From sequence record OP114733: 64,000 nucleotides of DNA. The stretch is one strand, 5' to 3'. The stretch comes from Escherichia phage vB_EcoM-pEB20. Below the pieces are notes generated by a model that saw only the letters and a list, made by a program, of their open reading frames with translations, did not search any database and was not told the origin of the DNA. A program made the translations under genes and the position numbers. Shown here piece after piece: positions 4,587-47,647 of the stretch (positions are counted from its first letter, which is position 1; each line of letters starts with the position of its first letter).

Positions 4587-5075
4587 ATGAATATATTTGA
4601 AATGCTTCGTAATGACGAAGGTCTTAGACTGACTTTATACAAAGACACTGAAGGCTTTTGGACGATTGGCATCGGCCATTTAGTAACAAAGAACCCGTCT
4701 TTAGCCGTAGCTAAAGCTGAACTTGACAGAATGATCGGTCGTAAATGCAACGGTACAATTACCCTTGATGAGGCTGAAAAGCTATTTAATGAAGACGTTG
4801 ATAAAGCCGTCCGCGGAATCTTGGGTAATGCTAAACTTAAACCGGTATATGATTCTTTAGATGCGGTTCGTCGATGCGCATTGGTTAATATGGTCTTCCA
4901 AATGGGTGTATCAGGCGTCGCCGGTTTTACTAATTCTCTTCGTATGCTTCAACAGAAACGTTGGGATGAAGCGGCAGTAAATCTAGCCCAATCTAAATGG
5001 TATCGTCAGACACCTAATCGTGCGAAACGCGTAATCTCAACATTTAAAACAGGAACTTGGAAAGCGTATATATGA
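4587..5075 (+). CDS. e: endolysin, T4 lysozyme (gp e)
   Basis: [31 protein letters not shown] nearly identical to T4 lysozyme as recalled; 162 aa. Confidence 0.95.
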
Positions 5076-5353
5076 AAACATATAGTGAATTTTTATCAGA
5101 ATCTATTCTTAACGAAGCTACTGACACATTTGCAACTAAGCTAGGTGCAGCTTTGGTTGAAGCTGAAAGTCTATTAGCACGTATTTCTGAACTTGCTAGT
5201 AAGATAGATACTCGCAAATTTGAACGTACCAGCGATATCGCTAAGCTTGAAGCCTTGTTACGTATGTGCGATAAACCGGAAGAAATCGCTAAGAACGGCT
5301 CGCTAATGAAACAACGTCTTGAAAAATATATTTCAGGCGCTTCGGAAAAATAG
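5072..5353 (+). CDS. internal-protein-like with capsid targeting sequence [10 protein letters not shown]
   Basis: N-terminal CTS-like decapeptide typical of T4 IPI/IPII/IPIII; ATGA overlap with e. Confidence 0.6.
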
Positions 5354-5411
5354 TGTTTACTTCCTCCAAGGACTTTGATACTATACATTCATCAACTACT
5401 TGGAGGAAATT

Positions 5412-5825
5412 ATGACCCGTATCAATTTAACACTTGTTTCTGAACTGTCCGACCAACATCTTATGGCTGAGTATCGTGAATTACCACGCGTATTTGGTGC
5501 AGTCCGTAAACATGTTCAAAACGGTAAACGTGTAAAGGATTTTAAAATCTCTCCAACATTTATCTTAGGCACAGGTCACGTAACATTCTTTTACGACAAA
5601 CTCGAATTTTTACGTTTACGACAAATCGAGCTAATCGCTGAATGCTTGAAACGTGGTTTCAAAATCAAGGACACGACTGTCCAGGATATTTCCGACATCC
5701 CTGCCGAATTTCGTAATAATTATGTCCCGTCCGAAGCGTCCATTGCGATAAGTCAAGCACGCTTAGATGAAAAAATTGCTCAACGTCCGACTTGGTACAA
5801 ATACTATGGTAAATCAATTTACTAA
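5412..5825 (+). CDS. denV: endonuclease V, pyrimidine-dimer DNA glycosylase
   Basis: [24 protein letters not shown].. near-identical to T4 EndoV as recalled. Confidence 0.9.
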
Positions 5826-5832
5826 GGAAAAA

Positions 5833-6093
5833 ATGAAAATGTATCAAGAATTTATCACTGAAGCAGATGCCAAAGGTCCTAAATTTAAAGTTAAAGCTTT
5901 CATTGGTGATGCGGAAGACTTTGGCTCATTAAAACGTAATGGGTATTCTTTCTTAGGTGGCAATGGTAAAGAAATCAACACCTATGCAAAACGTAGTGAA
6001 ATTGCTTATGTTGTAGCAAGCCCTAAAGTAGATGTTGACGATATTGGATACGATTTTAACAACTTCGGAATTATTTCTGGCGGTAAAGATTAA
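5833..6093 (+). CDS. internal-protein-like with CTS MKMYQEFITE
   Basis: Start taken at M23 of ORF 5767 (after denV stop, AAGGAAA RBS). Confidence 0.6.
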   Translation: MKMYQEFITEADAKGPKFKVKAFIGDAEDFGSLKRNGYSFLGGNGKEINTYAKRSEIAYVVASPKVDVDDIGYDFNNFGIISGGKD

Positions 6094-6157
6094 ATTGTTT
6101 ACGCTTAAGTATTAATATGGTATAATTACTCTATCAAAACAAACAAGGAAACAAAAA

Positions 6158-6472
6158 ATGAAAACGTATAAAGAATTTATTGCAGAATCCGCCAACCAAC
6201 GCGTTGAAGGTGGTTATATTTGGATTGAACAAGTTGAGCCACCGAGCCGCACTTCTACAGGTAAATGGAAAATTACTGTTGACGGTCCTGGCGGTAAACG
6301 TAGGACTCTTAAAGAAATTAACGGGTACTATGAAGAAGCTCTTTCGGATGCAGGAACTTACATGATGCAAATCATGATTAAAAACCCTGAAAACCGTTTT
6401 GCAGCTAAAGTCTTCCGCCGTATTGGTAATAAACTTTATGATGCATACTCTAAAAACTTCCCTAAAGAATAA
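6158..6472 (+). CDS. internal-protein-like with CTS MKTYKEFIAE
   Basis: ORF track; CTS-like N-terminus. Confidence 0.65.
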   Translation: MKTYKEFIAESANQRVEGGYIWIEQVEPPSRTSTGKWKITVDGPGGKRRTLKEINGYYEEALSDAGTYMMQIMIKNPENRFAAKVFRRIGNKLYDAYSKNFPKE

Positions 6473-6497
6473 CATAAATTAAAACAATAGGAACAAA

Positions 6498-6827
6498 ATG
6501 AAAACATATCAGGAGTTTATCACTGAAGTTACATTATCTGCGGAACAGAAAGCTGCTATCGAAGAAGGTAAAAATCCCAAAGTAACATATAAAGTAAATA
6601 GTAAAGGCGTTTTTGATGGCTTGGTTCAAGACCCTGAATTGAAAAAAGCTCTTTCTAAAACTAATGCGTACTTTGCTCCTAAATTTAACACAGCCGGTGT
6701 ACTTATTGGATTGGATGTATTCAACTCTAAAGGTGTTCTATCTAATGCCTTTGGTTATGCCGCTAACAAAATTACCAAAGCCGCATGGGAATCCAATACC
6801 AAACAAGCTCAAAAGCCTAGAGTATAA
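6498..6827 (+). CDS. internal-protein-like with CTS MKTYQEFITE
   Basis: ORF track; CTS-like N-terminus. Confidence 0.65.
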   Translation: MKTYQEFITEVTLSAEQKAAIEEGKNPKVTYKVNSKGVFDGLVQDPELKKALSKTNAYFAPKFNTAGVLIGLDVFNSKGVLSNAFGYAANKITKAAWESNTKQAQKPRV

Positions 6828-8969: not shown

Positions 8970-9428
8970 ATGACTATCAATTCAGACGTTTTTATCCGCC
9001 GTAATAAACTCCGTCGAATCTTTGAAACGGAGTTCCGCAAAATAAATGCCGGTATAAAAGATGCTGCAAAGTCTCTTGGACTACCAGGCTTTCATATCAA
9101 GTATTCTCAACATCTCTTAGATCGTGCCATCCAGAGAGAAATAGATGAGAATTACGTTTTTGAATTATTTCATAAAGTAAAAAATCACGTTAAAGAAGTT
9201 GCAGAATTTTTGTCAATGCCGGCACGTCCAGATGTTGATGAAGATTTTGTCGAAGGTGTCGAGTATCGTCCAGGCCGTTTAGAAATAACTGACGGAAATC
9301 TTTGGTTAGGACTTACAGTTTGTCGCGAAAATCCGGCATTCAAAATGAAGACTCTTCAATGCAGAATGGCTATTATTAACAGTAAACGACTACCAGGAAA
9401 AGCTTCTAAAGCAGTGATTAAAATCTAG
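8970..9428 (+). CDS. regB: RegB endoribonuclease (cleaves GGAG in early mRNAs)
   Basis: MTINSDVFIRRNKLRR..YSQHLLDRAIQREIDE..RLPGKASKAVIK resembles T4 RegB as recalled; 152 aa; synteny. Confidence 0.7.
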   Translation: MTINSDVFIRRNKLRRIFETEFRKINAGIKDAAKSLGLPGFHIKYSQHLLDRAIQREIDENYVFELFHKVKNHVKEVAEFLSMPARPDVDEDFVEGVEYRPGRLEITDGNLWLGLTVCRENPAFKMKTLQCRMAIINSKRLPGKASKAVIKI

Positions 9429-9436
9429 AGGTAAAC

Positions 9437-9979
9437 ATGAGAAAAGCACTACTCGCTGGTCTATTTGCTCTTTCATTATCAGCACATAGCTCCGAGCATA
9501 CTTTTAGTAATGTCCAACTCGATAACTTGAATTATGCTTATCAGTTTGGGGAACAGTTTTCTAAGGACGGAAAATTTAAAACGCATGAAAATATGCATAA
9601 GAAAGGACTTGGATACATAATGGCCGCAATACTATGGCAGGAATCATCCGCCGGTATTAATCTTAAAGATAAGAAAGGTCACCATGCGTATGGAATGTTC
9701 CAAAATTATCTACCAACAATGAGGGCAAGAATTAACCAGCTTGGTTATAATATGACTGATGCCCAAATTAAGAAAATGCTATCTAAGCGGTCTAATTCAG
9801 CCAGATGGGCTTATATCGAATTTTCTTATTGGTTAAATATACATAACGGGGATATAAGAAAAGCTATATCCTCATATAATGCGGGATGGAAGACAAGTGC
9901 TGGAAGTAAATATGCTTCTGAAGTCCTAGAAAAGGCTAATTACCTTAAATCAAATAAACTACTGGAAATAAAAGAATGA
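9437..9979 (+). CDS. secreted lytic-transglycosylase-like protein (SLT motif ES...AYGMFQ) with signal peptide
   Basis: N-terminal signal peptide MRKALLAGLFALSLSAHS; QESSAG..AYGMFQ matches SLT catalytic pattern. Confidence 0.6.
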   Translation: MRKALLAGLFALSLSAHSSEHTFSNVQLDNLNYAYQFGEQFSKDGKFKTHENMHKKGLGYIMAAILWQESSAGINLKDKKGHHAYGMFQNYLPTMRARINQLGYNMTDAQIKKMLSKRSNSARWAYIEFSYWLNIHNGDIRKAISSYNAGWKTSAGSKYASEVLEKANYLKSNKLLEIKE

Positions 9980-10323
9980 CCAAAATGTTGGCTTTAATAG
10001 TTGGCTTGGTTTCATTTAACGCTCTTGCTAATACTACATATACTGATGTAACGGAGTATACAAACAGAACGGCGTCTGATTATTGCGGTAAAAGTCAAGA
10101 GTGTAAAGTAGATTTTTCACAAAAATTGTTATATGCGTATAAAGACGGAGAAAAAGATGGGGCGTCTAGTAGGTTCAAGGCGTCTACCTTAATTAAAAGA
10201 TACTATAAAAAATGGCAAATATTAGAATGCTCGGTGGCGGAACCTAAAGATAAGGCAGCATGCAATTCTATGGTGGACCGTCTAGTTGACTCTTATAATA
10301 GAGGACTTGCAGCAAGTGATTAA
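9976..10323 (+). CDS. small secreted protein (signal peptide, 4 Cys)
   Basis: MTKMLALIVGLVSFNALA signal peptide; 115 aa. Confidence 0.55.
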   Translation: MTKMLALIVGLVSFNALANTTYTDVTEYTNRTASDYCGKSQECKVDFSQKLLYAYKDGEKDGASSRFKASTLIKRYYKKWQILECSVAEPKDKAACNSMVDRLVDSYNRGLAASD

Positions 10324-10783
10324 AAACTATATCAAGGGCGATATTGTCGCCCTGTTTTCTAAAGGTAATAATATTGCTCACGGGTGTAATTGTTTTCATA
10401 CAATGGGCGCCGGTGTAGCAGGCCAATTAGCAAAGGCTTATCCAAAAATTTTAGAAGCCGATAAACTTCAAACCGAATTCGGAGACGAGTCTAAACTCGG
10501 GACTTATTCGGTTTATGAAAAATATTTTAAGACCCATAAAGCTTATTGCTTTAATCTTTATACACAGTTTGAGCCGGGACCTAATTTTGAGTACTCTGCT
10601 TTAATGAATTGTATAATAGAATTAAATGAATTCGGAAAGAATAAGATAACAAAGCCTGTAATTTATATGCCAAGAATTGGTGCAGGTATTGGTGGTGGAA
10701 ACTGGGATGTCATCGAAGAGATTTTAGATACGTATTCCACTAAACTAGAAATTGTGATTGTTGATTGGGAACCGTTATTATGA
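10286..10783 (+). CDS. macro-domain protein (ADP-ribose binding/processing, Macro_2-like)
   Basis: AHGCNCFHTMGAGVAGQLAKAYP and PRIGAGIGGGNW motifs; start is non-ATG (TTG 10286 or GTG 10316). Confidence 0.65.
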   Translation: MTLIIEDLQQVIKNYIKGDIVALFSKGNNIAHGCNCFHTMGAGVAGQLAKAYPKILEADKLQTEFGDESKLGTYSVYEKYFKTHKAYCFNLYTQFEPGPNFEYSALMNCIIELNEFGKNKITKPVIYMPRIGAGIGGGNWDVIEEILDTYSTKLEIVIVDWEPLL

Positions 10784-37096: not shown

Positions 37097-39808
37097 ATGA
37101 AAGAATTTTACTTAACGGTTGAACAGATTGGTGATTCAATTTTTGAACGTTACATCGATTCTAATGGCCGTGAACGTACTCGTGAAGTAGAATATAAACC
37201 ATCACTGTTTGCTCATTGTCCAGAAAGTCAGGCTACAAAATATTTCGATATCTACGGTAAGCCGTGTACTCGTAAGTTGTTCGCTAATATGCGTGATGCC
37301 TCCCAATGGATTAAACGCATGGAAGATATCGGACTTGAAGCACTTGGCATGGACGATTTCAAATTGGCGTATTTGTCTGACACTTATAACTATGAAATCA
37401 AATACGACCATACAAAAATTCGTGTGGCTAACTTCGACATCGAAGTAACATCTCCGGACGGGTTCCCTGAGCCGTCACAAGCAAAACATCCGATTGATGC
37501 TATCACCCATTATGACTCAATTGACGACAGGTTCTACGTATTTGATCTATTGAATTCTCCATATGGTAATGTAGAAGAATGGTCTATTGAAATCGCTGCT
37601 AAGCTTCAAGAACAAGGTGGTGATGAAGTTCCATCTGAAATTATCGATAAAATCATTTATATGCCGTTCGATAGCGAAAAAGAATTGTTGATGGAATATC
37701 TCAACTTCTGGCAACAGAAAACTCCTGTCATTTTGACTGGATGGAACGTTGAGTCATTTGATATTCCATATGTGTATAACCGAATCAAGAATATTTTTGG
37801 CGAATCTACTGCGAAACGTTTATCACCACATCGTAAAACTCGTGTTAAAGTTATCGAAAACATGTATGGTTCTCGTGAAATCATTACATTGTTCGGTATC
37901 TCTGTTCTTGATTACATTGACCTTTACAAAAAATTCTCTTTTACCAATCAACCGTCGTATTCTCTGGATTACATTTCAGAATTTGAATTGAACGTTGGTA
38001 AACTGAAATATGACGGCCCTATTTCTAAGCTTCGTGAAAGCAATCACCAACGATATATTTCTTATAACATTATCGACGTGTATCGTGTATTGCAAATTGA
38101 TGCTAAGCGTCAGTTCATCAACTTGAGCTTGGACATGGGTTATTATGCTAAGATACAGATTCAATCTGTGTTCAGCCCAATTAAAACATGGGATGCCATT
38201 ATTTTTAATAGCCTTAAAGAGCAGAACAAGGTGATTCCACAAGGTCGTTCTCACCCGGTTCAACCTTATCCTGGCGCTTTTGTTAAGGAACCTATTCCAA
38301 ATCGATACAAATATGTAATGAGTTTCGACCTTACATCTCTGTATCCAAGTATTATTCGCCAAGTGAATATTAGCCCGGAAACAATAGCAGGAACGTTTAA
38401 AGTAGCTCCACTGCATGATTATATTAACGCTGTTGCTGAACGTCCTTCAGATGTGTACAGTTGTTCTCCTAACGGCATGATGTATTATAAAGACCGTGAT
38501 GGTGTAGTTCCAACTGAAATCACTAAGGTCTTTAATCAACGTAAAGAACATAAAGGTTACATGCTTGCAGCTCAACGTAATGGTGAAATAATTAAAGAGG
38601 CATTGCATAATCCTAATCTTTCTGTTGACGAACCATTAGATGTTGATTATCGTTTCGACTTCAGCGATGAGATTAAAGAAAAGATTAAAAAGTTGTCTGC
38701 TAAATCTCTTAATGAAATGTTGTTTAGAGCTCAACGTACTGAAGTTGCAGGTATGACTGCACAAATTAACCGTAAATTGCTCATCAACTCACTTTATGGT
38801 GCACTTGGAAACGTTTGGTTCCGTTATTATGATTTGCGTAATGCTACTGCAATCACAACATTCGGGCAAATGGCTTTACAGTGGATTGAACGTAAAGTTA
38901 ATGAATATCTGAATGAGGTTTGTGGTACAGAAGGCGAAGCTTTCGTTCTATATGGTGATACAGACTCCATTTACGTATCTGCAGATAAAATTATTGATAA
39001 GGTTGGTGAATCTAAATTCCGTGATACCAACCATTGGGTAGACTTCTTAGATAAGTTCGCTCGTGAACGTATGGAACCAGCTATTGATAGAGGTTTCCGT
39101 GAAATGTGTGAATACATGAACAATAAACAACACTTAATGTTCATGGACCGAGAAGCTATCGCTGGGCCTCCGCTCGGTTCTAAAGGTATTGGTGGATTCT
39201 GGACTGGTAAGAAACGTTATGCATTAAACGTGTGGGATATGGAAGGTACTCGTTACGCTGAGCCTAAACTCAAAATCATGGGTCTCGAAACACAGAAATC
39301 TTCGACTCCTAAAGCAGTACAGAAAGCTCTTAAGGAATGTATTCGTCGTATGCTTCAAGAAGGTGAAGAATCATTACAAGAATATTTTAAAGAGTTTGAA
39401 AAAGAATTCCGTCAATTGAATTATATTAGCATCGCGTCGGTATCTTCTGCGAATAACATTGCTAAATATGACGTCGGTGGATTCCCTGGCCCCAAATGTC
39501 CGTTCCATATTCGTGGAATTCTGACATATAACCGGGCTATCAAAGGTAATATTGATGCTCCACAAGTTGTAGAAGGTGAAAAAGTATATGTTCTGCCTTT
39601 ACGTGAAGGAAACCCATTCGGTGATAAATGTATCGCATGGCCTTCTGGTACTGAAATCACAGATTTAATTAAAGACGACGTACTTCATTGGATGGACTAC
39701 ACTGTTCTCCTTGAGAAGACATTTATTAAACCACTTGAAGGATTCACATCAGCAGCGAAACTCGATTACGAGAAGAAAGCATCTCTGTTCGATATGTTCG
39801 ATTTTTGA
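37097..39808 (+). CDS. 43: DNA polymerase gp43 (family B)
   Basis: 903 aa; exo motifs FDIEV and YGDTDS; matches RB69 gp43 as recalled. Confidence 0.97.
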   Translation: MKEFYLTVEQIGDSIFERYIDSNGRERTREVEYKPSLFAHCPESQATKYFDIYGKPCTRKLFANMRDASQWIKRMEDIGLEALGMDDFKLAYLSDTYNYEIKYDHTKIRVANFDIEVTSPDGFPEPSQAKHPIDAITHYDSIDDRFYVFDLLNSPYGNVEEWSIEIAAKLQEQGGDEVPSEIIDKIIYMPFDSEKELLMEYLNFWQQKTPVILTGWNVESFDIPYVYNRIKNIFGESTAKRLSPHRKTRVKVIENMYGSREIITLFGISVLDYIDLYKKFSFTNQPSYSLDYISEFELNVGKLKYDGPISKLRESNHQRYISYNIIDVYRVLQIDAKRQFINLSLDMGYYAKIQIQSVFSPIKTWDAIIFNSLKEQNKVIPQGRSHPVQPYPGAFVKEPIPNRYKYVMSFDLTSLYPSIIRQVNISPETIAGTFKVAPLHDYINAVAERPSDVYSCSPNGMMYYKDRDGVVPTEITKVFNQRKEHKGYMLAAQRNGEIIKEALHNPNLSVDEPLDVDYRFDFSDEIKEKIKKLSAKSLNEMLFRAQRTEVAGMTAQINRKLLINSLYGALGNVWFRYYDLRNATAITTFGQMALQWIERKVNEYLNEVCGTEGEAFVLYGDTDSIYVSADKIIDKVGESKFRDTNHWVDFLDKFARERMEPAIDRGFREMCEYMNNKQHLMFMDREAIAGPPLGSKGIGGFWTGKKRYALNVWDMEGTRYAEPKLKIMGLETQKSSTPKAVQKALKECIRRMLQEGEESLQEYFKEFEKEFRQLNYISIASVSSANNIAKYDVGGFPGPKCPFHIRGILTYNRAIKGNIDAPQVVEGEKVYVLPLREGNPFGDKCIAWPSGTEITDLIKDDVLHWMDYTVLLEKTFIKPLEGFTSAAKLDYEKKASLFDMFDF

Positions 39809-39848: not shown

Positions 39849-40484
39849 ATGAAAACTACTCCTATTACTATCGCTATTGACGCAATTATAAAACAAGCTT
39901 CTTCTTTGGCCGCTATGGCCAAAGTAATTAGTCAAAACCCTGCTCGTTATAATGCTATTCTAGAAACTCTTCGACGCCCTGGACTTAGTAATTATGAAAG
40001 CCGGGTAATTATTACAGGTGTTGGTAAGAATGCTAATATCGCAACTAAAGCTTCCGAGACTTTTGCTTCACTCGGTATCCCGAGTATGTACTTGAACACT
40101 GGGCATTATTCTCACGGTGATGCAGGATTCATTGCGCCTAATGATGTGTTGATTCATATTAGTCGTTCTGGTAAAACTGAAGAAATGATAGGCGTGGCTA
40201 AGCATCTTAAAATGATTCGTCCGAATGTCAAACAGATTCTGTTGCATTGTAACCCAGACATTCCACAAGAAAATGAAGCCCTTTTTGATTACTCTTTCTG
40301 TACAGGCATCGCGGTAGAGGTTGATGAGAATTCTCTGGCTCCGACTATGTCCACTACATTGTTGTTAGCGCTTATCGATACGTTTGCTATCAACCTTTCG
40401 TCTGAGCGTGGATTTACCTCTAATGACTTCCTTAAGTTCCATCCAGGCGGTGCACTAGGTGCCATGTTACGAGGCGAACAATGA
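39849..40484 (+). CDS. SIS-domain sugar-phosphate isomerase (KdsD/GutQ-like arabinose-5-phosphate isomerase core, no CBS domains)
   Basis: VIITGVGKNANIATK, HGDAGF, LAPTMSTT, FHPGGALGAML match KdsD SIS domain pattern. Confidence 0.7.
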   Translation: MKTTPITIAIDAIIKQASSLAAMAKVISQNPARYNAILETLRRPGLSNYESRVIITGVGKNANIATKASETFASLGIPSMYLNTGHYSHGDAGFIAPNDVLIHISRSGKTEEMIGVAKHLKMIRPNVKQILLHCNPDIPQENEALFDYSFCTGIAVEVDENSLAPTMSTTLLLALIDTFAINLSSERGFTSNDFLKFHPGGALGAMLRGEQ

Positions 40485-40624
40485 AAGCAATAACAATAGG
40501 ACTTTTACTATTGATGCTTGTCATGACTATCTACTGGAGCTTAACGGCTCCAGTAATGATTCCAACACTTGTAATTGGATGGATTATGATTGGACTACAA
40601 GCAAAGTATGAATGCTTTAACTAG
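40481..40624 (+). CDS. 47-aa two-TM membrane peptide (below ORF-track cutoff)
   Basis: ATGA overlap with SIS gene stop. Confidence 0.35.
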   Translation: MKAITIGLLLLMLVMTIYWSLTAPVMIPTLVIGWIMIGLQAKYECFN

Positions 40625-40665
40625 AATAGTGTACAATACTCCTACTTACCAATGAGGACTTCAAC

Positions 40666-42351
40666 ATGAAAAAAGCTGTTATTCTTGGTGCTGGACTGGC
40701 AACTCGTTTGTATCCAATAACGCACCATATTCCTAAGGTGCTTGTTAACTATAAACAAGACACTATTCTAAGCAATTTGTATACAATTTATTCTGACCTT
40801 GGCGCAGATGAAATTATTGTAGTAGTTCATTCAAAATTTGCTGAAACTGTTCGAGCTTATTGTGAGCAAGAAGGGTTCAATGTGACTATTCGTACAGTTG
40901 ATGAAGCGTATGGTTCTGCTTATGCTCTTGCTAAATTACACAAAGATTTAGACGGCCATAATGTAATTGTTAACTGGTGTGATATTATTCCTGATTTTGG
41001 TTCATGGTCTTGGAATGTTAACGCAATCTATGTTAAGGGTGACGAATGTCGATATAATTTCGACGGTGAAAATATCACTAACGTAGGTTCAACAGGTGGT
41101 AATGTTGTAGGAATTTATCAGTTCAAAGACTGGGAATTCTATATGGGTTCTACTGATGAGGAAATTCATGAATACTGCAAAGGACGTGATTTCGTAGAAT
41201 TCCTTTACGGCAGCGCATTCAATAAATCAGAGCTTATGAATCTAATTGATTTAGGTGATATGCCTAAACTTGAAAAAGCTCATGAAGTTCGTGAACTTAA
41301 TCGTAGTTTTAATGCAGTTGAAATTGGTGAAGAAACTGTAACTAAATTCGCATTAACCGAACAGGGTCGAGCTCTTCAGAAAGATGAGATTTCATGGTAT
41401 CTTAAAGTGAAATCAGATTCAGTTCCTCAGTTAGTTTCGGTAAATGAAAATAATTTTGAAATGGAACGTATTAAAGGTAAGCCGGCATTTGAATATATTA
41501 AATCCAAATCAAGTCTTGCTCGTCCACAAATTGTTGATGCAATTTTAGATGCACTGAAATTCAGCACAGACACTTATTTTGTAAGTCCTGAAACTGTTCG
41601 TCGTGATTTCACTAAAGAGTTCTATACGAAAGTTATTGATCGTTGTGAAAGCATTCAACCATTGATTGATTCATTTGGTAAAATCACACATGTGAACTAC
41701 ACTAAGATTGGACGTCTGAAGCCAATGCTGAAACAAGCTTTAGAACACCTTATTCGTTATCATAACCGTTCTCAGGGACAGTACTCTGTTATTCATGGTG
41801 ACCCGAACTTCAGTAATACTATGATTACTGATAACGGCGAAGTCAAGTTTATAGACCCTCGTGGATATTTTGGCGAAACCAAGATTTATGGGCCAAAATT
41901 GTATGATGAAGCTAAAGTGCTTTATGCTGTTTCAGGATATGATGAATTCAATGCTAATCCGACCTGGGGACAGTTTACTATTGATGAAACAACTTGTAAT
42001 GTGACTATTAACATCAATCCATTAGTTTACAAATATGGAAAGATGAGTTCGTTTAACGAGTATCATCATTTGGCTGTAGCAATTATCTGGATTGCATTAG
42101 GTGGTTATTTCAAGAATAATCCACTTAAAGCGGTAGCCGCATATTATAAAGGTATGGAACTTCTGACTAAGCAATTACGTAACATGGGCCGTGTACTTCA
42201 GGACGGCTCTATTAGTTATGACGTAGCAGAACCTGTAACGGCTACTCTGATTACAAAAAATCCTGGTAAATGGGTACTAACTGATAAAGAAACCGGTGTT
42301 TCCTATCGTCCAATCGGTGGCGATATCACTCATCAATGGGAACGAATTTAA
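40666..42351 (+). CDS. bifunctional sugar-1-phosphate nucleotidyltransferase (N) / sugar kinase of APH-ChoK fold (C)
   Basis: N-terminal GAGLATRLYPIT (RmlA-like); C-terminal HGDPNFSN...IDPRG (Brenner motif plus metal-binding Asp). Confidence 0.7.
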   Translation: MKKAVILGAGLATRLYPITHHIPKVLVNYKQDTILSNLYTIYSDLGADEIIVVVHSKFAETVRAYCEQEGFNVTIRTVDEAYGSAYALAKLHKDLDGHNVIVNWCDIIPDFGSWSWNVNAIYVKGDECRYNFDGENITNVGSTGGNVVGIYQFKDWEFYMGSTDEEIHEYCKGRDFVEFLYGSAFNKSELMNLIDLGDMPKLEKAHEVRELNRSFNAVEIGEETVTKFALTEQGRALQKDEISWYLKVKSDSVPQLVSVNENNFEMERIKGKPAFEYIKSKSSLARPQIVDAILDALKFSTDTYFVSPETVRRDFTKEFYTKVIDRCESIQPLIDSFGKITHVNYTKIGRLKPMLKQALEHLIRYHNRSQGQYSVIHGDPNFSNTMITDNGEVKFIDPRGYFGETKIYGPKLYDEAKVLYAVSGYDEFNANPTWGQFTIDETTCNVTININPLVYKYGKMSSFNEYHHLAVAIIWIALGGYFKNNPLKAVAAYYKGMELLTKQLRNMGRVLQDGSISYDVAEPVTATLITKNPGKWVLTDKETGVSYRPIGGDITHQWERI

Positions 42352-42716
42352 TGCAACTATGCTTCGATGTCGATGATTGTATAACCGAATGGAATAACAA
42401 TCGTGATTACGCTAATTTTAAACCGGACCTAGAAATGGTGGCAGCCATTAATGCCTTGTATGACGCAGGGCATACCATCACGCTTTACACTGCTCGTGGT
42501 ATGAAGTCTGTAGGTCCTGGACGTATTGCTGTAGATATCCTACCAGGTCTGTTACAGAACTTAGCTAACATTGGTTTGAAGTATCATAATTTGCTAACAC
42601 ATAAACCAGTATATGATTGGATTATCGACGACAAAGCTATGCGTCCTGACGAATTCAAAGCTCTTATGAATAAAGGCGAATTCGAAACATTTAAATCATA
42701 TAAACCAAATCTATAA
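42351..42716 (+). CDS. small HAD-superfamily phosphatase
   Basis: N-terminal FDVDDCIT (DxD motif I), ITLYTARG, WIIDDKAM; TAATG coupling to upstream gene. Confidence 0.6.
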   Translation: MQLCFDVDDCITEWNNNRDYANFKPDLEMVAAINALYDAGHTITLYTARGMKSVGPGRIAVDILPGLLQNLANIGLKYHNLLTHKPVYDWIIDDKAMRPDEFKALMNKGEFETFKSYKPNL

Positions 42717-42762
42717 TAATTTAAGTAAGACCTGCAAAAACCGTCGCATCAATTAACGCGAG

Positions 42763-43932
42763 ATGCAAAAAATGAATACTTTTAAAATTGGAACGAATTT
42801 CGATTTAGCTCTTCTTGATAAAATCGTAGAGCTCAATAAAACTTATCCTAATAGCTTGATAAATGAAGTATACGGCTCTACAAGAGAAATGGCTTTTGTA
42901 GCAGCCAGACCTGATTTTAGGCTTCCTGACGTTGACAAAAAGATGTTAGAAGACTACGTTAAACGTTGTAACGAATTAGGTATTTGCTTTAACTATACAC
43001 TCAACACGATAAATCCTGGTTCAAAAAGAGAACTAGTTGAGTGGAAGAAGAAAGCTATTCAGGATTATGTTCAGTATCTTTGGTCAATAGGCGTATGGCG
43101 TATTACTATCGCTAACCCTGTTGTTATGGAAATTGTTCGTGAAGTCAATAAAGACATTGAGATTGAAGTTTCAACAATTCTACATGTCGATGCTGTAACT
43201 CAAATCAAATACTTGCATGACCAGTATAATATCAAAAAGGTCTGCTGTGGAATTCATAAGAACCGTTCAGTTTCTTTCCTGAAGCGTGCAGCAGAGTTTT
43301 GCAATAAGAACAATATAATATTTGAAGTTCTTGTAAATGAGTTCTGTTCTAATGCTGGTAAAGGGTATACAACACATTGTAGCTATCGTGACTCTTGCTA
43401 TATTTTCCATAGTACTGATGTTACAGCTGATGATGCTAAATCCTTAAACGGATATCCTATGCAGCACTGTATTAAAGCTCGTGATACAGACCCATTTAAC
43501 TGGTTGAGAACTCGTTTTGTTCGTCCTCAAGATTTGAAACTTTATAATGATATTGGTATCACTCAATTTAAAGTTTCAGGACGTACAGGTAGCACAGACT
43601 ACATTTTGAAAGTTCTTGAAGCATACGCTTCTGAAAAGTTTGAAGGTAATTTGTTAGAACTGTGGAAGCCTTTAGAGACTATTTTCACTCTTGAAAACGA
43701 AACTGAGTTTTCACATACGGTAAATATTGAAACCTCTTTGTTAGACGGCTTTTTAGAAAAAAGGTGGTTCAGACATCCAGATTTCGATTGTGCTAATGAA
43801 ATCTGCGGGACGACGTGTACATATTGTGAAAGATATTATAAACGTCAGTTATCTAAAAATGGGTTATCAGAAAACTCTATATCTATTATTGATATAACTA
43901 ACTCTGATGACGCTTTGAGGTACCCGGAATGA
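42763..43932 (+). CDS. Cys-rich enzyme of unknown function (C-terminal CX4CX3CX2C); candidate Fe-S protein or transferase
   Basis: ORF track; CANEICGTTCTYC near C-terminus. Confidence 0.55.
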   Translation: MQKMNTFKIGTNFDLALLDKIVELNKTYPNSLINEVYGSTREMAFVAARPDFRLPDVDKKMLEDYVKRCNELGICFNYTLNTINPGSKRELVEWKKKAIQDYVQYLWSIGVWRITIANPVVMEIVREVNKDIEIEVSTILHVDAVTQIKYLHDQYNIKKVCCGIHKNRSVSFLKRAAEFCNKNNIIFEVLVNEFCSNAGKGYTTHCSYRDSCYIFHSTDVTADDAKSLNGYPMQHCIKARDTDPFNWLRTRFVRPQDLKLYNDIGITQFKVSGRTGSTDYILKVLEAYASEKFEGNLLELWKPLETIFTLENETEFSHTVNIETSLLDGFLEKRWFRHPDFDCANEICGTTCTYCERYYKRQLSKNGLSENSISIIDITNSDDALRYPE

Positions 43933-44168
43933 TTTCTAGAAAAACTTTTAACCACCAACTTAATGAAGAGATTTTGACTATAAAACTGAACACTAACGAA
44001 CAAATTCTTAAAAAGGCCCTGATGGGCCTGTTTGAAACTAAAGCGGCTAAAGTGATTAAAGAACCTGTTCAATTGGAATACTACGCTGATGCATTTCTTC
44101 ATAGTGTTCTTGGAAGTATCGATGCTGAAGCTTTACGTTATATCAACATTGTCAAGAAATTCAAATAA
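43929..44168 (+). CDS. hypothetical protein
   Basis: ORF track. Confidence 0.5.
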   Translation: MISRKTFNHQLNEEILTIKLNTNEQILKKALMGLFETKAAKVIKEPVQLEYYADAFLHSVLGSIDAEALRYINIVKKFK

Positions 44169-44210
44169 GCTTTACGAATTGAGTATATAATAAATTGTAT
44201 TGAGGTAAAC

Positions 44211-44927
44211 ATGGGAAAACATAACACAATGAAATATATCAAAGCCGCAGATTTTCAAACCGCATTTAAAGCAGTCAATCGTGAAATTTTAGAAAACCCG
44301 GAATTCGTAACTGATTCTCGTATTGGACGTTGTAATGAAATTGGGTCTATGACAGTAGTTGTTGACACTCCATCATCATTCAAAATGACCGACCCACGTA
44401 TTAACCGCATCTCTTATGAATATGCCGAAGACTTCTGGAAGTTTATGATTTCTGGTGGTACCAACGCAGAAGAAGCGTTTAAGGCATATCCTAATGTCGC
44501 TAAATTTATTTCTAAACCAAAATCAGATGTTTTGCCGGCGAACTTCAACACTTTCTATGGTCCTCGCATTGCGGCCCAATTACCAGCTCTTCTAAAAGAA
44601 CTTAAAGAGAAGCCTAACTCTCGAAGAGTTGTGTTCCAAATTCTAGAAAGTTCTGATCAGGCTTTGCTTGATTCAGACGAAACGCTTGAATATCCATGTA
44701 CTGACTCAGTGACTTATTATATTCGTGATGGTAAGCTTTATACCCACTGTCATATGCGTTCTCAGAACTGTGCTGTTGTTATGCAGTTGGATTTTTATCT
44801 CCAAGGAAAATTACTTCATTATATCGCTAACGAATGCGGTGTAGAAGTTGGTGATTATACTCATACCATGGTAAGTGCCCATGTGTTTGAACGTGATTTT
44901 GATTATGTTAAAGGATTCCTTGACTAA
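44211..44927 (+). CDS. 42: thymidylate-synthase-fold pyrimidine hydroxymethylase (gp42-like dCMP hydroxymethylase)
   Basis: NSRR..PCTDSVTYYIRDGKL..HMRSQN pattern parallels T4 gp42 active-site region as recalled; position between 43 and uvsX. Confidence 0.6.
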   Translation: MGKHNTMKYIKAADFQTAFKAVNREILENPEFVTDSRIGRCNEIGSMTVVVDTPSSFKMTDPRINRISYEYAEDFWKFMISGGTNAEEAFKAYPNVAKFISKPKSDVLPANFNTFYGPRIAAQLPALLKELKEKPNSRRVVFQILESSDQALLDSDETLEYPCTDSVTYYIRDGKLYTHCHMRSQNCAVVMQLDFYLQGKLLHYIANECGVEVGDYTHTMVSAHVFERDFDYVKGFLD

Positions 44928-45826
44928 TGGCTATTTTCCGCGTACCTATCTTGAGTATGCGGTCTTATGAAACTGGACAGTATGCTATCCTTAAGGATGG
45001 CAACTTCCAACTTCATTTGCACCGTGCTAATCCGGGTGATGTGATTACATATCCACGTAATGCATCTGATATTAAAGAATGCGAACGTCTTTTCCCAGAA
45101 TTTAAGTTTGTTCCGTTATGGTATAAAGATAACGCATATAATACTCGTAAATATTTCTGGTCTGAAAATGAATTTGTAGTTGATTCGTTGATTGCTTATT
45201 ATGATTGTGATTTTCTCATCACGGATATCACTGGATATGATGGTGCTTTTGACGTAGAATTCAATTTCAATATCACTGCAGACCCTAATAAACCACGTTT
45301 TTATATTGACGAATTCTTAAAAACTGATATGTTGTCGGTTAATCGTTCACTTCAAACTACTGTGTTGAATGAACGTCAAAAAGAAGTGCTGGTTAACGCA
45401 GGTGCAGATGGTAATAAGATTATCGTAACGCAGAAAGTTATACGTCCTTCCATCATGCAGCGTCTTGTAGGTGATTTGGCTCCTATTCATCTAGATGGTA
45501 TTTTTCATCCATTTCGAATTAGTGACCCGTGCTATCGTTTTGAACAAGTGGTTGAATGTGCAATTCAATTAGGCCAACCGCTTTATATAACCGATCCAAA
45601 TAATAGCTTCGACAGAAATAAGTATCCTGAAGAAGCACTGATTCGAATTTTTAAACCAACTAAAACTGAGTACTATCAAATTCTTAAAGGACGTCCGAAG
45701 ATTCAATATTTCGAAAATCCTGAAGAAGTATTCCATCCAGGTCTTGGTGAGTTCATCTACTTTAACGCTTTAATTTCTTCGCCGTATAATATACCTAAAT
45801 ATGAAGATGTCGTAATCGAGGAATAA
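44927..45826 (+). CDS. hypothetical 299-aa protein at beta-gt position; candidate DNA glycosyltransferase
   Basis: ORF track; no motif recognised; synteny only. Confidence 0.5.
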   Translation: MAIFRVPILSMRSYETGQYAILKDGNFQLHLHRANPGDVITYPRNASDIKECERLFPEFKFVPLWYKDNAYNTRKYFWSENEFVVDSLIAYYDCDFLITDITGYDGAFDVEFNFNITADPNKPRFYIDEFLKTDMLSVNRSLQTTVLNERQKEVLVNAGADGNKIIVTQKVIRPSIMQRLVGDLAPIHLDGIFHPFRISDPCYRFEQVVECAIQLGQPLYITDPNNSFDRNKYPEEALIRIFKPTKTEYYQILKGRPKIQYFENPEEVFHPGLGEFIYFNALISSPYNIPKYEDVVIEE

Positions 45827-45827
45827 A

Positions 45828-46376
45828 ATGGCTAAAATTATTTTAGTAGATGGCCCGGATAATGCTGGTAAAACAACTTTCATTAATGACATAATGGAAA
45901 TTAGTGAAAGATATGTAAAGATTGATTTCCCTAAACGAACAGTTGATGGGCGTTTCGATGTTAAGTCTCGAAATGAAGTTGGCTGTTTCGAAACGATGTT
46001 GAATTATTTAGACCCTACTAAGATTTATCTGTTAGACCGTGGATATATTAGTAACTGGGTTTATGGACGTATTCGACAAGATGCGGACTCGATTCTTGAC
46101 GTTTATGAACAGGACTATGTTCGTCTTTGCCAAAACCATGATGTGTTCACAATTATTTTAACACGTAACGAAATGACTGAAAGTTTTGAAGACGACCTTA
46201 TTACTTTGTCTTCACTCAGTTTCAATACAGTCATTTCACATTTTGAAGAGTTTGCAATTCATAACAAAATCCAAACGTATCAATTACTTAATCATGATGG
46301 TGCTAACAAAGTTATAGGATTTAATGCAAGCGAACGTAATTATTTGATTACAGAAATTATCAAATGGGCTCGTTAA
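45828..46376 (+). CDS. P-loop (deoxy)nucleotide/nucleoside kinase-like
   Basis: Walker A GPDNAGKTT; LLDRGYISNWVYG resembles dNK/TMPK DR motif. Confidence 0.6.
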   Translation: MAKIILVDGPDNAGKTTFINDIMEISERYVKIDFPKRTVDGRFDVKSRNEVGCFETMLNYLDPTKIYLLDRGYISNWVYGRIRQDADSILDVYEQDYVRLCQNHDVFTIILTRNEMTESFEDDLITLSSLSFNTVISHFEEFAIHNKIQTYQLLNHDGANKVIGFNASERNYLITEIIKWAR

Positions 46377-46474: not shown

Positions 46475-47647
46475 ATGTCTGATTTAAAATCTCGTCTGAT
46501 TAAAGCTTCTACTTCTAAAATGACTGCGGACTTGACTAAGTCTAAGCTGTTTAATAATCGCGATGAAGTCCCTACTCGTATTCCGATGTTGAATATTGCA
46601 TTAGGCGGTGCACTGAATGCCGGGTTGCAATCAGGCTTAACTATTTTTGCTGCTCCTTCTAAACACTTTAAAACGTTGTTTGGACTGACCATGGTTGCAG
46701 CGTATATGAAGAAATATAAAGATGCAATCTGTTTGTTTTATGACTCAGAATTCGGTGCTTCAGAATCTTATTTTCGTTCAATGGGTGTTGATTTAGACCG
46801 TGTAGTTCATACTCCTATTCAATCTGTCGAACAACTTAAAGTTGATATGACTAATCAGCTAGATGCAATCGAACGTGGCGAGAAAGTTATTATCTTTATT
46901 GACTCAATCGGTAACACTGCATCTAAGAAAGAAACCGAAGATGCTTTGAACGAGAAAGTTGTAGGCGATATGTCTCGTGCTAAGGCACTTAAATCTTTAT
47001 TTCGTATCGTAACGCCTTATCTGACTATTAAAGATATTCCGTGCGTTGCAATTAACCACACTGCTATGGAAATTGGTGGATTATATCCTAAAGAGATTAT
47101 GGGTGGTGGTACAGGTATTCTTTATTCAGCCAACACCGTATTCTTTATCTCTAAACGTCAGGTTAAAGAAGGTACAGAATTGACCGGTTATGACTTCACG
47201 TTGAAAGCAGAAAAATCTCGTACAGTTAAAGAGAAATCTACTTTCCCAATCACGGTTAATTTTGATGGCGGTATTGACCCATTCAGTGGCTTGTTAGAAA
47301 TGGCAACTGAAATTGGTTTTGTAGTTAAGCCTAAAGCCGGTTGGTATGCTCGTGAATTCCTTGACGAAGAAACAGGTGAAATGATTCGTGAAGAGAAATC
47401 GTGGCGTGCTAAAGCTACTGATTGTGTAGAATTCTGGGGACCTTTGTTTAAACATAAGCCTTTCCGTGACGCAATTGAAATGAAATATAAGCTAGGCGCT
47501 ATCTCGTCTATTAAAGAAGTTGATGACGCTGTTAACGACCTTATTAATTGCAAAGCAACAACTAAAGTTCCGGTTAAAGCTTCTGATGCTCCATCTGCAG
47601 CAGATATTGAAAACGACCTGGACGAAATGGAAAATTTTGATGAATAA
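46475..47647 (+). CDS. uvsX: recombinase UvsX (RecA-like)
   Basis: MSDLKSRLIKASTSKMTA...; 390 aa; resembles T4 UvsX as recalled. Confidence 0.95.
   Translation: MSDLKSRLIKASTSKMTADLTKSKLFNNRDEVPTRIPMLNIALGGALNAGLQSGLTIFAAPSKHFKTLFGLTMVAAYMKKYKDAICLFYDSEFGASESYFRSMGVDLDRVVHTPIQSVEQLKVDMTNQLDAIERGEKVIIFIDSIGNTASKKETEDALNEKVVGDMSRAKALKSLFRIVTPYLTIKDIPCVAINHTAMEIGGLYPKEIMGGGTGILYSANTVFFISKRQVKEGTELTGYDFTLKAEKSRTVKEKSTFPITVNFDGGIDPFSGLLEMATEIGFVVKPKAGWYAREFLDEETGEMIREEKSWRAKATDCVEFWGPLFKHKPFRDAIEMKYKLGAISSIKEVDDAVNDLINCKATTKVPVKASDAPSAADIENDLDEMENFDE

Follow-up and report, generated by a model that had tools for sequence, protein, structure and literature searches.

Gp48 of phage RB69 (NP_861738.1) is a 5hodCMP synthase; experiments have established that it turns dCMP into 5-hydroxy-dCMP with flavin and O2 (PMC13326640). 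Expression of RB69 gp48 together with a dNMP kinase leads to 5hodC in E. coli DNA, the product is labelled by 18O2, and FMN co-purifies with the protein; nine further D169N homologues, including the enzyme of Rhizobium phage RL38JI, also make 5hodC (PMC13326640). Asn at the position of ThyA Asp169 is diagnostic of 5hodCMP synthases as against ThyA and gp42, Asp at the position of ThyA Asn177 selects dCMP over dUMP, and an acidic residue at the position of ThyA Leu143 is typical of the non-methylating members of the family (PMC13326640).

AfhB of phage HY126 is represented in the PDB by the entries 9IQC, 9IR2 and 9IQU. It too is an experimentally established dCMP 5-hydroxylase dependent on flavin and O2, as given by the PDB titles, 9IQC being entitled 'Monooxygenase dependent on riboflavin with dCMP and FAD' and 9IQU 'phage HY126 dCMP hydroxylase-AfhB with substrate dCMP'. 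The structures are reportedly those of He et al. (Nat Chem Biol 2026).

With the fold of a folate enzyme re-tooled for hydroxylation by flavin and O2, these proteins form a remarkable enzyme class, and the ThyA-fold hydroxylases are at the origin of a group of DNA modifications in which a glycosyl residue is ether-linked to cytosine and restriction enzymes are blocked. Misnaming as thymidylate synthase or dCMP hydroxymethylase persists in many database records; where some GenBank records give the orthologue one of these names, the name is an automatic one.

Here we present a classification and a set of features for ORF 44211-44927 of Escherichia phage vB_EcoM-pEB20, together with a description of the neighbouring genes in the window, i.e. 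the whole 64-kb stretch of DNA that was analysed (sequence record OP114733). The ORF is predicted, almost with certainty, to encode a dCMP 5-hydroxylase (5-hydroxy-dCMP synthase) orthologous to RB69 gp48 and HY126 AfhB. The kind of enzyme is already known and the gene is a near-identical copy of that for a characterised phage enzyme; because the class was published in 2025-2026 for proteins with 98-99% identity, the pEB20 copy adds a corrected annotation only.

Classification and features

The ORF listing gives an exact ATG-to-stop reading frame on the plus strand that encodes 238 aa, with GAGG located 8 nt 5' of the ATG. No other ORF in the 64-kb window belongs to the ThyA superfamily. All motifs quoted in the first-pass annotation were located in its product: NSRR at residues 136-139 (nt 44616-44627), PCTDSVTYYIRDGKL at residues 162-176 (nt 44694-44738) and HMRSQN at residues 181-186 (nt 44751-44768). 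The ThyA fold claimed there is borne out by the match to the Pfam model Thymidylat_synt, PF00303 (E = 2.3e-15, 56.9 bits, cut-off 24.3). The AF2 model of the protein (pLDDT 87.5) comes closest in fold to 9IQC and 9IQU, structures of MilA and ThyA ranking next, and superposition on the HY126 AfhB structures gives TM values of 0.94-0.96 (9IQC: 0.94-0.95, 98% identity). A sequence search of the PDB delivered 9iqc_A with E = 7.9e-161 and 9iqu_A with E = 1.7e-157.

RB69 gp48 is of equal length, is identical at 236 of the 238 residues, with N84 and V107 replaced by D and A in RB69, and agrees at all signature residues. HY126 AfhB shares 98% identity over the full length; its five substitutions (T17S, E31Q, N84D, E86K and V107A) leave the signature positions untouched. 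Phages phiE142, AV114 and NHEP29 encode the protein with 100% identity. In its fold, its D169N exchange, its catalytic Cys, Asp and acidic residue, its closeness to a characterised member and its gene cluster, the 238-aa protein belongs with the 5hodCMP synthase clade of RB69 gp48, DLP3 gp80 and HY126 AfhB. The gene is neither host-derived nor part of a prophage, since a search of 5,426 complete E. coli genomes gave no match to it.

Four signature codons are listed with the genes of the locus in Table 1. Among the 41 clade members compared, which range from 52 to 100% identity, Cys163, Asn186 (D169N), Asp194 (N177D) and Glu160 (L143E) are invariant, and so are Arg138/139 and Arg183-Ser184. The pattern RS-x-N occupies the ThyA-169 site in 51 of 54 related loci (RSQN, with RSEN in two Pseudomonas-phage rows); the other three are two fragments that do not cover the site and one weak match of 30% identity with RSQD.

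Table 1. Genes and signature codons of the hydroxylase locus of phage vB_EcoM-pEB20
Feature	Position	Strand	Evidence
Arabinose-5-phosphate isomerase (RB69 gp55)	39849..40484	+	TIGR00393 KpsF/GutQ 2e-32, KdsD 7e-31; synteny
Bifunctional sugar-1-P nucleotidylyltransferase and kinase, 561 aa (RB69 gp52:53, HY126 AfhE-like)	40666..42351	+	
HAD-type phosphatase, 126 aa (RB69 gp51, HY126 AfhF-like)	42336..42716	+	TIGR01689 capsule-biosynthesis phosphatase, 4.6e-12
U32-family Fe-S protein, 389 aa (RB69 gp50)	42763..43932	+	PF01136
79-aa ORF without Cys (RB69 gp49)	43929..44168	+	Synteny; start overlaps stop of U32-like gene
dCMP 5-hydroxylase / 5hodCMP synthase, predicted, ThyA fold	44211..44927	+	RB69 gp48 / HY126 AfhB orthologue
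Glu160 codon GAA, at ThyA Leu143 position	44688..44690	+	Alignment
Cys163 codon TGT, catalytic nucleophile	44697..44699	+	Alignment; equals E. coli ThyA Cys146, T4 gp42 Cys148
Asn186 codon AAC, 'D169N' signature	44766..44768	+	Alignment to E. coli ThyA and T4 gp42
Asp194 codon GAT, dCMP-over-dUMP determinant	44790..44792	+	Alignment; equals ThyA Asn177, T4 gp42 Asp179
Glycosyltransferase, 299 aa (RB69 gp46:47)	44927..45826	+	RB69 synteny; start overlaps hydroxylase stop codon
Thymidylate-kinase-like nucleotide kinase, 182 aa (RB69 gp45)	45828..46376	+	Synteny; Table 1 of PMC13326640

Alternative assignments

The first-pass annotation described the ORF as a divergent hydroxymethylase with an active-site region parallel to that of T4 gp42. 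The parallel extends to the catalytic Cys, to the Asp that specifies dCMP and to an acidic residue where ThyA has Leu143, and the T4 counterparts of the three motifs in the alignment are DSRR, MCTNTVQYLIRDKKI and NMRSND. The last residue of HMRSQN and NMRSND, Asn as against Asp in T4, is a functionally diagnostic difference. That the protein is more divergent from T4 than expected was rightly seen, because its identity to T4 gp42 is 25% (over 218 aa, 53.5 bits) while the flanking UvsX shares 68% with T4 UvsX. In tblastn searches a sharp gap separates the clade, with at least 68% identity, from gp42-type matches at about 25%. A divergent gp42 orthologue, i.e. a folate-dependent dCMP hydroxymethylase whose product 5hm-dCMP is subsequently glycosylated, would be in line with the ThyA fold, with the three active-site residues common to both proteins, with the genome slot of T4 gene 42 from gene 43 to uvsX, and with the name dCMP hydroxymethylase in several GenBank records. 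We regard it as highly improbable. High full-length identity to canonical gp42, the mark of an orthologue in a T4-like genome and the finding that would have refuted the first-pass annotation by its own terms, is absent at 25%, and both the Asp at ThyA-169 and the folate-site Trp equivalent to ThyA Trp80 are absent: gp42 of T4 and of Aeromonas phage 31 has RSND and 'IWQQ'/'IWEA' where the 238-aa protein has RSQN and 'VAKF' (E. coli ThyA: RSCD at the first of these sites). The 99%-identical RB69 gp48 produced 5hodC where T4 gp42, in parallel, produced 5hmdC (PMC13326640). According to their titles, the crystal structures solved for the 98%-identical HY126 protein hold dCMP and a flavin (FAD), and RB69 DNA carries its arabinose on the C5 ether oxygen and not on a hydroxymethyl group. 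The label 'hydroxymethylase' was therefore wrong, RB69 gp48 (99%) and HY126 AfhB (98%) being dCMP 5-hydroxylases; the accompanying caveat on base specificity and product was sound, although the tests it called for are already settled by published work on the orthologues. Non-orthologous replacement describes the relation to T4 gp42 better than divergence.

A genuine thymidylate synthase converting dUMP to dTMP, as annotated in many database records, is hardly credible, in spite of the PF00303 match and the use of that name in many phage records and PDB sequence entries. With every NCBIfam ThyA model the score falls far short of the cut-off (68.1 against 174.55 at best; 50 against 108-325), Asp stands for Asn at 177 and Glu for Leu at 143, and the alignment shows Asp169 replaced and the C-terminal segment that closes over folate absent, so that the features of ThyA (EC 2.1.1.45) are missing at the level of family cut-offs, Asn177, Asp169 and C-terminal segment alike; experiments on the orthologue contradict this function as well (PMC13326640). 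As little weight is given to a hydroxylase of other or broader base specificity (dUMP, ribo-CMP) whose main product is not 5hodCMP. It finds some support in the nearest non-self structures, those of MilA, a CMP/dCMP hydroxymethylase, at TM 0.80, and is opposed by the invariance of Asp194 throughout the clade, by the presence of dCMP in the 9IQC and 9IQU structures and by the full replacement of cytosine in RB69 DNA, in which thymine is unmodified. The assignment as dCMP 5-hydroxylase is kept in what follows.

Proposed chemistry

In line with what has been shown for near-identical orthologues, the pEB20 enzyme would convert dCMP, with loosely bound flavin and molecular oxygen, to 5-hydroxy-dCMP, which would be phosphorylated by the phage dNMP kinase and enter the DNA in place of cytosine. 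In the virion DNA one or more units of arabinose would be ether-bonded to the 5-OH, and the modified DNA would resist many restriction enzymes, again as shown for such orthologues. The proposed sugar donor is UDP-arabinofuranose, which the products of the adjacent genes (isomerase, kinase/uridylyltransferase and phosphatase) would supply. In analogy to the ThyA reaction, Cys163 would add to dCMP at C6, C5, thereby activated, would attack a flavin-derived oxygen species and not methylene-tetrahydrofolate, and elimination of the thiol would give the 5-hydroxy product; the same analogy suggests that cytosine is selected by Asp194 and that Asn186, standing where the folate family has Asp, marks the switch to another cofactor. 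At the level of the genome, pEB20 has a non-orthologous hydroxylase, a glycosyltransferase and sugar-nucleotide genes in place of the module '42 + beta-gt' that lies between gene 43 and uvsX in T4.

Gene neighbourhood

The hydroxylase gene is part of a Mosigvirus gene cluster for arabinosyl-5-hydroxycytosine, which is of the RB69 type, complete and located at 39849-46376. The gene order in the window is that of RB69 gp55 through gp44, and the window DNA is about 97% identical to many Mosigvirus genomes. The product of the bifunctional gene matches PF00483 in its N-terminal and kinase-like models in its C-terminal part, with NCBIfam matches in addition; the RB69 gp52:53 / AfhE-like enzyme makes UDP-arabinofuranose, the role given for RB69 gp51 / AfhF-like phosphatase is the conversion of arabinose-1,5-bisphosphate to Araf-1-P, and RB69 gp46:47 is proposed as the first 5hoC arabinosyltransferase (PMC13326640). 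Pfam and NCBIfam searches gave no match for the 299-aa glycosyltransferase and no family match for the 79-aa ORF, which is kept in some related loci. The 182-aa kinase shows a weak dTMP-kinase P-loop match.

Two genes upstream of the hydroxylase gene lies the gene of the U32-like protein, which matches PF01136 with 42.2 bits (cut-off 22.4). An hhalign comparison with E. coli UbiU/UbiV/RlhA/TrhP gave a probability of 96.1% and E = 2.9e-9 over 214 columns, and the protein thus has the U32 domain of the RlhA, TrhP and UbiU/UbiV family at a distant 15-21% identity to the E. coli U32 enzymes. Its AF2 model (pLDDT 91.8) finds in the PDB, as the best fold match, the uncharacterised U32 protein 5d88 (TM 0.72, target-normalised), the rest being generic TIM barrels; a PDB sequence search gave no match. 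The alignment of phage homologues shows ten invariant Cys and Glu188, which aligns with the essential Glu of U32 hydroxylases. Cys195, Cys206, Cys212 and Cys236, invariant in 45 phage homologues, lie within the region of the [4Fe-4S] motif (reference residues: TrhP E162/C170/C177; UbiU C169/C176/C193/C232), but their spacing is unlike that motif and two alignments pair them differently. A second invariant Cys group, CX4CX3CX2C, is located at the C-terminus. The protein is listed as 'sugar or heterocycle reductase' in Table 1 of a 2026 NAR paper; no published role for the RB69 gp50 U32-like protein was found in the literature, and He et al. 2026 may treat it.

In 40 viral loci from outside the T4-like family Straboviridae, the genes beside the U32-like homologues code for DNA glycosyltransferases and nucleotide kinases, and the neighbourhood contains no ThyA homologue of the hydroxylase type. 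Genes for chorismate mutase and/or DAHP synthase adjoin the U32-like homologue in 13 of these 40 loci (5 of 25 lineages). Both enzymes belong to the route to prephenate, which serves U32 hydroxylases as oxygen donor. KDO-8-P synthase was first considered for the PF00793 neighbour because of the arabinose-5-P isomerase nearby, and was rejected: DAHP-synthase models score 125-240 bits as against 30-64 for KDO8PS, and a chorismate mutase domain is fused in four loci.

A role of the U32-like protein in the sugar pathway was also considered and is weakened, because phage DLP3 makes tri-arabinosyl-5hoC without a U32-like gene (PMC13326640) and because Acinetobacter, Pseudomonas and Dhakavirus-type phages have arabinose genes without U32; the opposite case is given by eight U32 loci with only kinase and glycosyltransferase and no sugar genes within 10 kb. 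The hosts of the U32-bearing Straboviridae seen are all Enterobacterales or Shewanella, and phages of Acinetobacter, Pseudomonas and Rhizobium are without the U32-like gene. A clean link between U32 and facultatively anaerobic hosts does not hold in both directions, as Dhakavirus-type coliphage loci (L077-L081 and L090) have no U32-like gene within 10 kb.

We tentatively suggest that the ThyA-fold hydroxylase may be only one of two partners, the one for aerobic conditions, with the U32-like protein as a candidate prephenate-dependent, O2-independent pyrimidine C5-hydroxylase. The latter would supply 5-hydroxycytosine nucleotides in hosts growing without oxygen and would be the sole base hydroxylase in many uncultivated phages. 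If this is true, it would explain how gut coliphages could still hydroxylate cytosine without O2, add DNA precursors to RNA and quinones as substrates of prephenate-dependent hydroxylation, and indicate that hydroxylated and glycosylated DNA is present in a large number of uncultivated phages.

Comparison with known systems

The closest described system is that of RB69, in which the neighbours of gp48 on either side are those of the pEB20 gene. In the RB69 reference record gp46/47 and gp52/53 are each split, whereas pEB20 has intact single ORFs of 299 and 561 aa.

T4 gp42 has in common with the 238-aa protein the ThyA fold, the catalytic Cys, the cytosine-selecting Asp and the acidic ThyA-143 residue, as well as the slot between DNA polymerase (gene 43) and uvsX and the biological role of equipping cytosine with a hydroxyl group that can be glycosylated. 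It differs by Asp in the place of Asn186 and by a retained Trp80 equivalent; its cofactor is methylene-THF and its product carries CH2OH, whereas enzymes of the RB69 gp48 type use flavin and O2 and add OH (PMC13326640).

In alignment, E. coli ThyA shares the fold, Cys146, Arg126/127, Arg166-Ser167 and Tyr94 with the 238-aa protein, but identity is 21%, and the pEB20 protein has N177D, L143E and D169N and is without the Trp80/Trp83 region and the C-terminal tail. MilA, the CMP 5-hydroxymethylase of mildiomycin biosynthesis (PDB 5JNH, 5B6D), is the best non-self structure (TM 0.80, 24% identity) and matches over the full length in sequence (E = 4e-11). Like the predicted pEB20 enzyme it is cytosine-specific; MilA differs in being folate-dependent, in its hydroxymethyl product, in its preference for the ribonucleotide and in being about 80 residues longer.

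For the suggested pairing of the two hydroxylases, the known counterparts are TrhO/TrhP and UbiI-H-F/UbiU-V of E. coli, in which O2-dependent and prephenate-dependent hydroxylases are paired (PMC6599085, PMC10990095). The likeness lies in an O2-using hydroxylase and a U32 Fe-S protein encoded together, and such a pairing in the phage, which would parallel those of E. coli, could serve one C5-pyrimidine hydroxylation.

Genomic setting and gene content

The ThyA-like gene is a single open reading frame running from ATG to stop, preceded by a GAGG ribosome-binding site, and is the only ThyA-superfamily member encoded in the window. The order of genes in the surrounding cluster corresponds one for one to RB69 gp55 to gp44, and approximately 7 kb of DNA around the gene match about 150 coliphage genomes of Mosigvirus (the RB69 group) at ~97% identity. 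Complete E. coli genomes contained no match to the gene.

Features of the cluster and of related loci (L-numbers denote related loci, each with its own coordinates)
Feature	Record	Position	Strand	Length
DNA polymerase	window	37097-39808		
Arabinose-5-P isomerase	window	39849-40484		
Nucleotidyltransferase/kinase	window	40666-42351		561 aa
HAD phosphatase	window	42336-42716		
U32-like protein (RB69 gp50)	window	42763-43932	+	389 aa
79-aa ORF (RB69 gp49)	window	43929-44168	+	79 aa
ThyA-like ORF	window	44211-44927	+	238 aa
Glycosyltransferase	window	44927-45826		299 aa
Tmk-like kinase	window	45828-46376		
uvsX	window	46475-47647		
Aromatic-pathway gene flanking U32	L045	7290-8354		
Aromatic-pathway gene flanking U32	L056	11082-12200		
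Aromatic-pathway gene flanking U32	L047	8323-9384		
Aromatic-pathway gene flanking U32	L042	8399-9430		
Aromatic-pathway gene flanking U32	L012	9133-9888		
Aromatic-pathway gene flanking U32	L031	9384-10127		
Aromatic-pathway gene flanking U32	L053	10959-11426		
Triad	L015, L016, L035, L038, L039, L043, L046, L061	~2 kb upstream of the U32 gene in each		

Whereas the RB69 reference record (L003) splits the nucleotidyltransferase/kinase into gp52/53 (9095-10781) and the glycosyltransferase into gp46/47 (5598-6498), each is one intact ORF in the window, which fits the published interpretation of the RB69 splits as sequencing errors. In some close relatives a homing-endonuclease gene of 762 bp is inserted between the nucleotidyltransferase/kinase and HAD phosphatase genes (4671-5432 in phage NRG-P0074, L001); it is absent from the window, where these two genes overlap by 16 nt (around 42336). 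The 79-aa ORF, whose start overlaps the U32 stop, contains no Cys, matches no family and is kept in some, not all, related clusters. Misnaming of these products is widespread in public records (PQ480333.1 of NRG-P0074 and other GenBank entries): 'thymidylate synthase' or 'dCMP hydroxymethylase' for the hydroxylase, 'dCMP deaminase' or 'GlmU' for the nucleotidyltransferase/kinase, 'phosphoheptose isomerase' for the HAD phosphatase, and 'peptidase' or 'collagenase' for the U32 protein.

Identity of the ThyA-like protein

The first-pass annotation described a divergent ThyA-fold hydroxymethylase with an active-site region paralleling that of T4 gp42. The motifs on which it relied are present in the protein (NSRR at residues 136-139, PCTDSVTYYIRDGKL at 162-176 and HMRSQN at 181-186), and Pfam assigns it to Thymidylat_synt (PF00303, E = 2.3e-15). 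Divergence unexpected for a T4-like genome is confirmed, since the protein shares 25% identity with T4 gp42 over 218 residues, as against 68% between UvsX, encoded 1.5 kb downstream, and T4 UvsX. Fold, base and divergence were correctly read; the name hydroxymethylase has to be abandoned, because RB69 gp48, identical to the ThyA-like protein at 236 of 238 residues, together with the phage dNMP kinase in E. coli gave 5-hydroxy-dC in DNA, and T4 gp42, assayed alongside, gave 5hmdC (Lee et al., Nucleic Acids Res 2026, PMC13326640).

The same study reported that the gp48 product is labelled by 18O2, that FMN co-purifies with the enzyme, and that DNA of RB69 and Acinetobacter phage DLP3 contains mono- and poly-arabinosylated 5-hydroxycytosine with the ether oxygen at C5. 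It further cites He et al. (Nat Chem Biol 2026) for reconstitution of the reaction and for an HY126 structure solved with flavin. Orthologues in phages phiE142, AV114 and NHEP29 are 100% identical to the ThyA-like protein. A PDB sequence search returned 9iqc/9ir2 and 9iqu (E = 1e-157 to 1e-161), on which the AlphaFold model (pLDDT 87.5) superposes with TM 0.94-0.96; in the fold search 9IQC is titled 'Monooxygenase dependent on riboflavin with dCMP and FAD' and 9IQU 'phage HY126 dCMP hydroxylase-AfhB with substrate dCMP' (both released 2025-07-16). The gene is therefore an ordinary one, its function already explained and known from published orthologues.

Signature residues and family boundaries

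The ThyA-like protein was aligned with RB69 gp48 and the homologues from Serratia phage 92A1, Acinetobacter phage Konradin and Rhizobium phage RHph_I46, with gp42 of T4 and of Aeromonas phage 31, and with E. coli ThyA (checked identical to PDB 1aob). Cys163 corresponds to ThyA Cys146, Glu160 to Leu143, Arg183-Ser184 to Arg166-Ser167, Asn186 to Asp169 and Asp194 to Asn177. Both gp42 proteins retain Asp where the ThyA-like protein has Asn186; the latter has different sequence in place of the Trp80 region shared by ThyA and gp42, and it lacks the C-terminal segment of E. coli ThyA. Asn at the Asp169 position is the published diagnostic residue, and all nine further D169N homologues examined made 5hodC (PMC13326640).

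The aligned signature residues do not vary among 41 clade members from genomes and metagenomes (52-100% identity). The site RS-x-N occurs in 51 of 54 related loci (RSQN; RSEN in two Pseudomonas-phage rows), the other three being two fragments that lack the site and one weak match of 30% identity with RSQD. Pseudomonas phage PspYZU05 (L067/L084) has RSEN, not RSQN. Against the NCBIfam thymidylate-synthase models the protein reaches none of the curated cut-offs.

The gene is a non-orthologous replacement of gene 42. A drifted copy of gene 42 was considered and rejected on the tblastn search of 50,697 phage records, where identities are discontinuous: at least 68% within the clade, ~30% for the Rhizobium group and ~25% for gp42-type proteins. 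The clade with at least 68% comprises Mosigvirus, Tegunavirus and Dhakavirus, phages of Klebsiella, Serratia, Proteus and Yersinia, Acinetobacter Lazarusvirus and Shewanella Thanatos.

Proposed reaction and modification pathway

For orthologues it has been shown that dCMP, flavin and O2 yield 5-hydroxy-dCMP, which, once phosphorylated by the dNMP kinase, takes the place of C in DNA (PMC13326640). By analogy with ThyA chemistry, Cys163 would attack C6 and the activated C5 would then react with a flavin-oxygen species; Asp194 would read the N3/N4 face of cytosine, and Asn186 may accompany the switch from folate to flavin. In virion DNA arabinose is attached to the 5-OH, with UDP-arabinofuranose as the proposed donor, a role shown in vitro for the third sugar only (DLP3 gp76 and gp77; PMC13326640). 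The first sugar may be attached either at the mononucleotide stage or on DNA (PMC13326640). The isomerase, the AfhE-like kinase/uridylyltransferase and the AfhF-like phosphatase near the ThyA-like gene match the published UDP-arabinofuranose route.

The U32-like neighbour

The U32-like protein belongs to Pfam Peptidase_U32. This family includes RlhA (5-hydroxycytidine 2501 of 23S rRNA), TrhP (5-hydroxyuridine 34 of tRNA) and UbiU/UbiV, Fe-S proteins associated with hydroxylation that depends on prephenate and needs no O2 (PMC6599085, PMC10990095). RB69 gp50 is only tabulated, without discussion, as 'sugar or heterocycle reductase' (Lee et al., PMC13326640); in the literature searched, no role was found for it and no link of phage U32 proteins to hydroxylation or prephenate. 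Profile-profile comparison (hhalign) with four E. coli U32 proteins gave 96% probability, and the invariant Glu188 aligns with their essential Glu. Among 45 phage homologues ten Cys never vary. Four of them fall within the Fe-S motif region, although with another spacing than in the E. coli proteins and with pairings that differ between two alignments; a further CX4CX3CX2C group lies at the C-terminus. The U32-like protein is the most conserved of the cluster, with 85% identity to Serratia 92A1 as compared with 74% for the ThyA-like protein, 50% for the kinase and 44% for the glycosyltransferase.

Matches were found in 221 phage records, all with at least 81% identity; the Straboviridae carrying the gene have Enterobacterales or Shewanella as hosts. 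The clusters of Acinetobacter Konradin and Pseudomonas PspYZU05, equivalent in other respects, lack it, as does the hydroxylase locus of Rhizobium RHph_I46, which is organised differently. Dhakavirus-type coliphage loci (L077-L081, L090) have hydroxylase, glycosyltransferase, kinase, AfhE-like and HAD genes, with neither a U32-like gene nor an arabinose-5-P isomerase within 10 kb. A link between presence of the gene and host oxygen physiology is suggestive, and because of these coliphage loci it is not strict.

U32-like genes in uncultivated phages

Many uncultivated phage contigs carry homologues with 37-58% identity. Forty loci outside the Straboviridae (25 lineages at 70% identity) were inspected for ~10 kb on each side: none contained a hydroxylase-type ThyA homologue and one contained a canonical ThyA, nor did a whole-collection scan with two conserved hydroxylase-clade peptide patterns pick up any of these contigs. 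Around the U32-like gene, relatives of cluster genes from the window recur: a relative of the 299-aa glycosyltransferase just upstream (27 loci), the AfhE-like nucleotidylyltransferase/kinase (17), the Tmk-like kinase (10) and the isomerase (10). Genes of dCTPase/dUTPase type, dCMP deaminase and replicative polymerase also recur. Two contigs of very large phages (up to 466 kb), L011 (7447-9086) and L013 (8279-9858), have a dCMP deaminase gene directly before the U32-like gene, overlapping it in L011, and thymidylate kinase, a UDG-domain protein and PolIII-alpha nearby; no glycosyltransferase relative was detected there. In eight lineages the Tmk-like kinase, the glycosyltransferase relative and the U32-like gene form a compact triad, with no ThyA homologue or sugar-nucleotide genes within 10 kb. 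In L015 the triad is followed by a TAGT-like glycosyltransferase, dUTPase/DCD and UDP-galactopyranose mutase.

DAHP synthase is the entry enzyme of the shikimate pathway, and chorismate mutase makes prephenate. A gene of the aromatic-amino-acid pathway, encoding DAHP synthase, a DAHP synthase-chorismate mutase fusion or a stand-alone chorismate mutase, adjoins the U32-like gene in 13 of 40 loci (5 of 25 lineages); these phages therefore encode enzymes leading to prephenate. Because of these gene contexts, which give fairly strong contextual support, the phage U32-like protein is read as a candidate prephenate-dependent hydroxylase of DNA-base precursors and, in Mosigviruses, as a possible anoxic duplicate of the O2-dependent ThyA-fold enzyme, a tentative reading that we place slightly on the doubtful side. 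If true, Mosigviruses would have an O2-independent backup of the ThyA-fold hydroxylase for anoxic growth. In T4 the same interval, from gene 43 to uvsX, holds imm, gene 42, beta-gt and segA; the triad has a T4-style module layout, with U32 standing where gene 42 would be.
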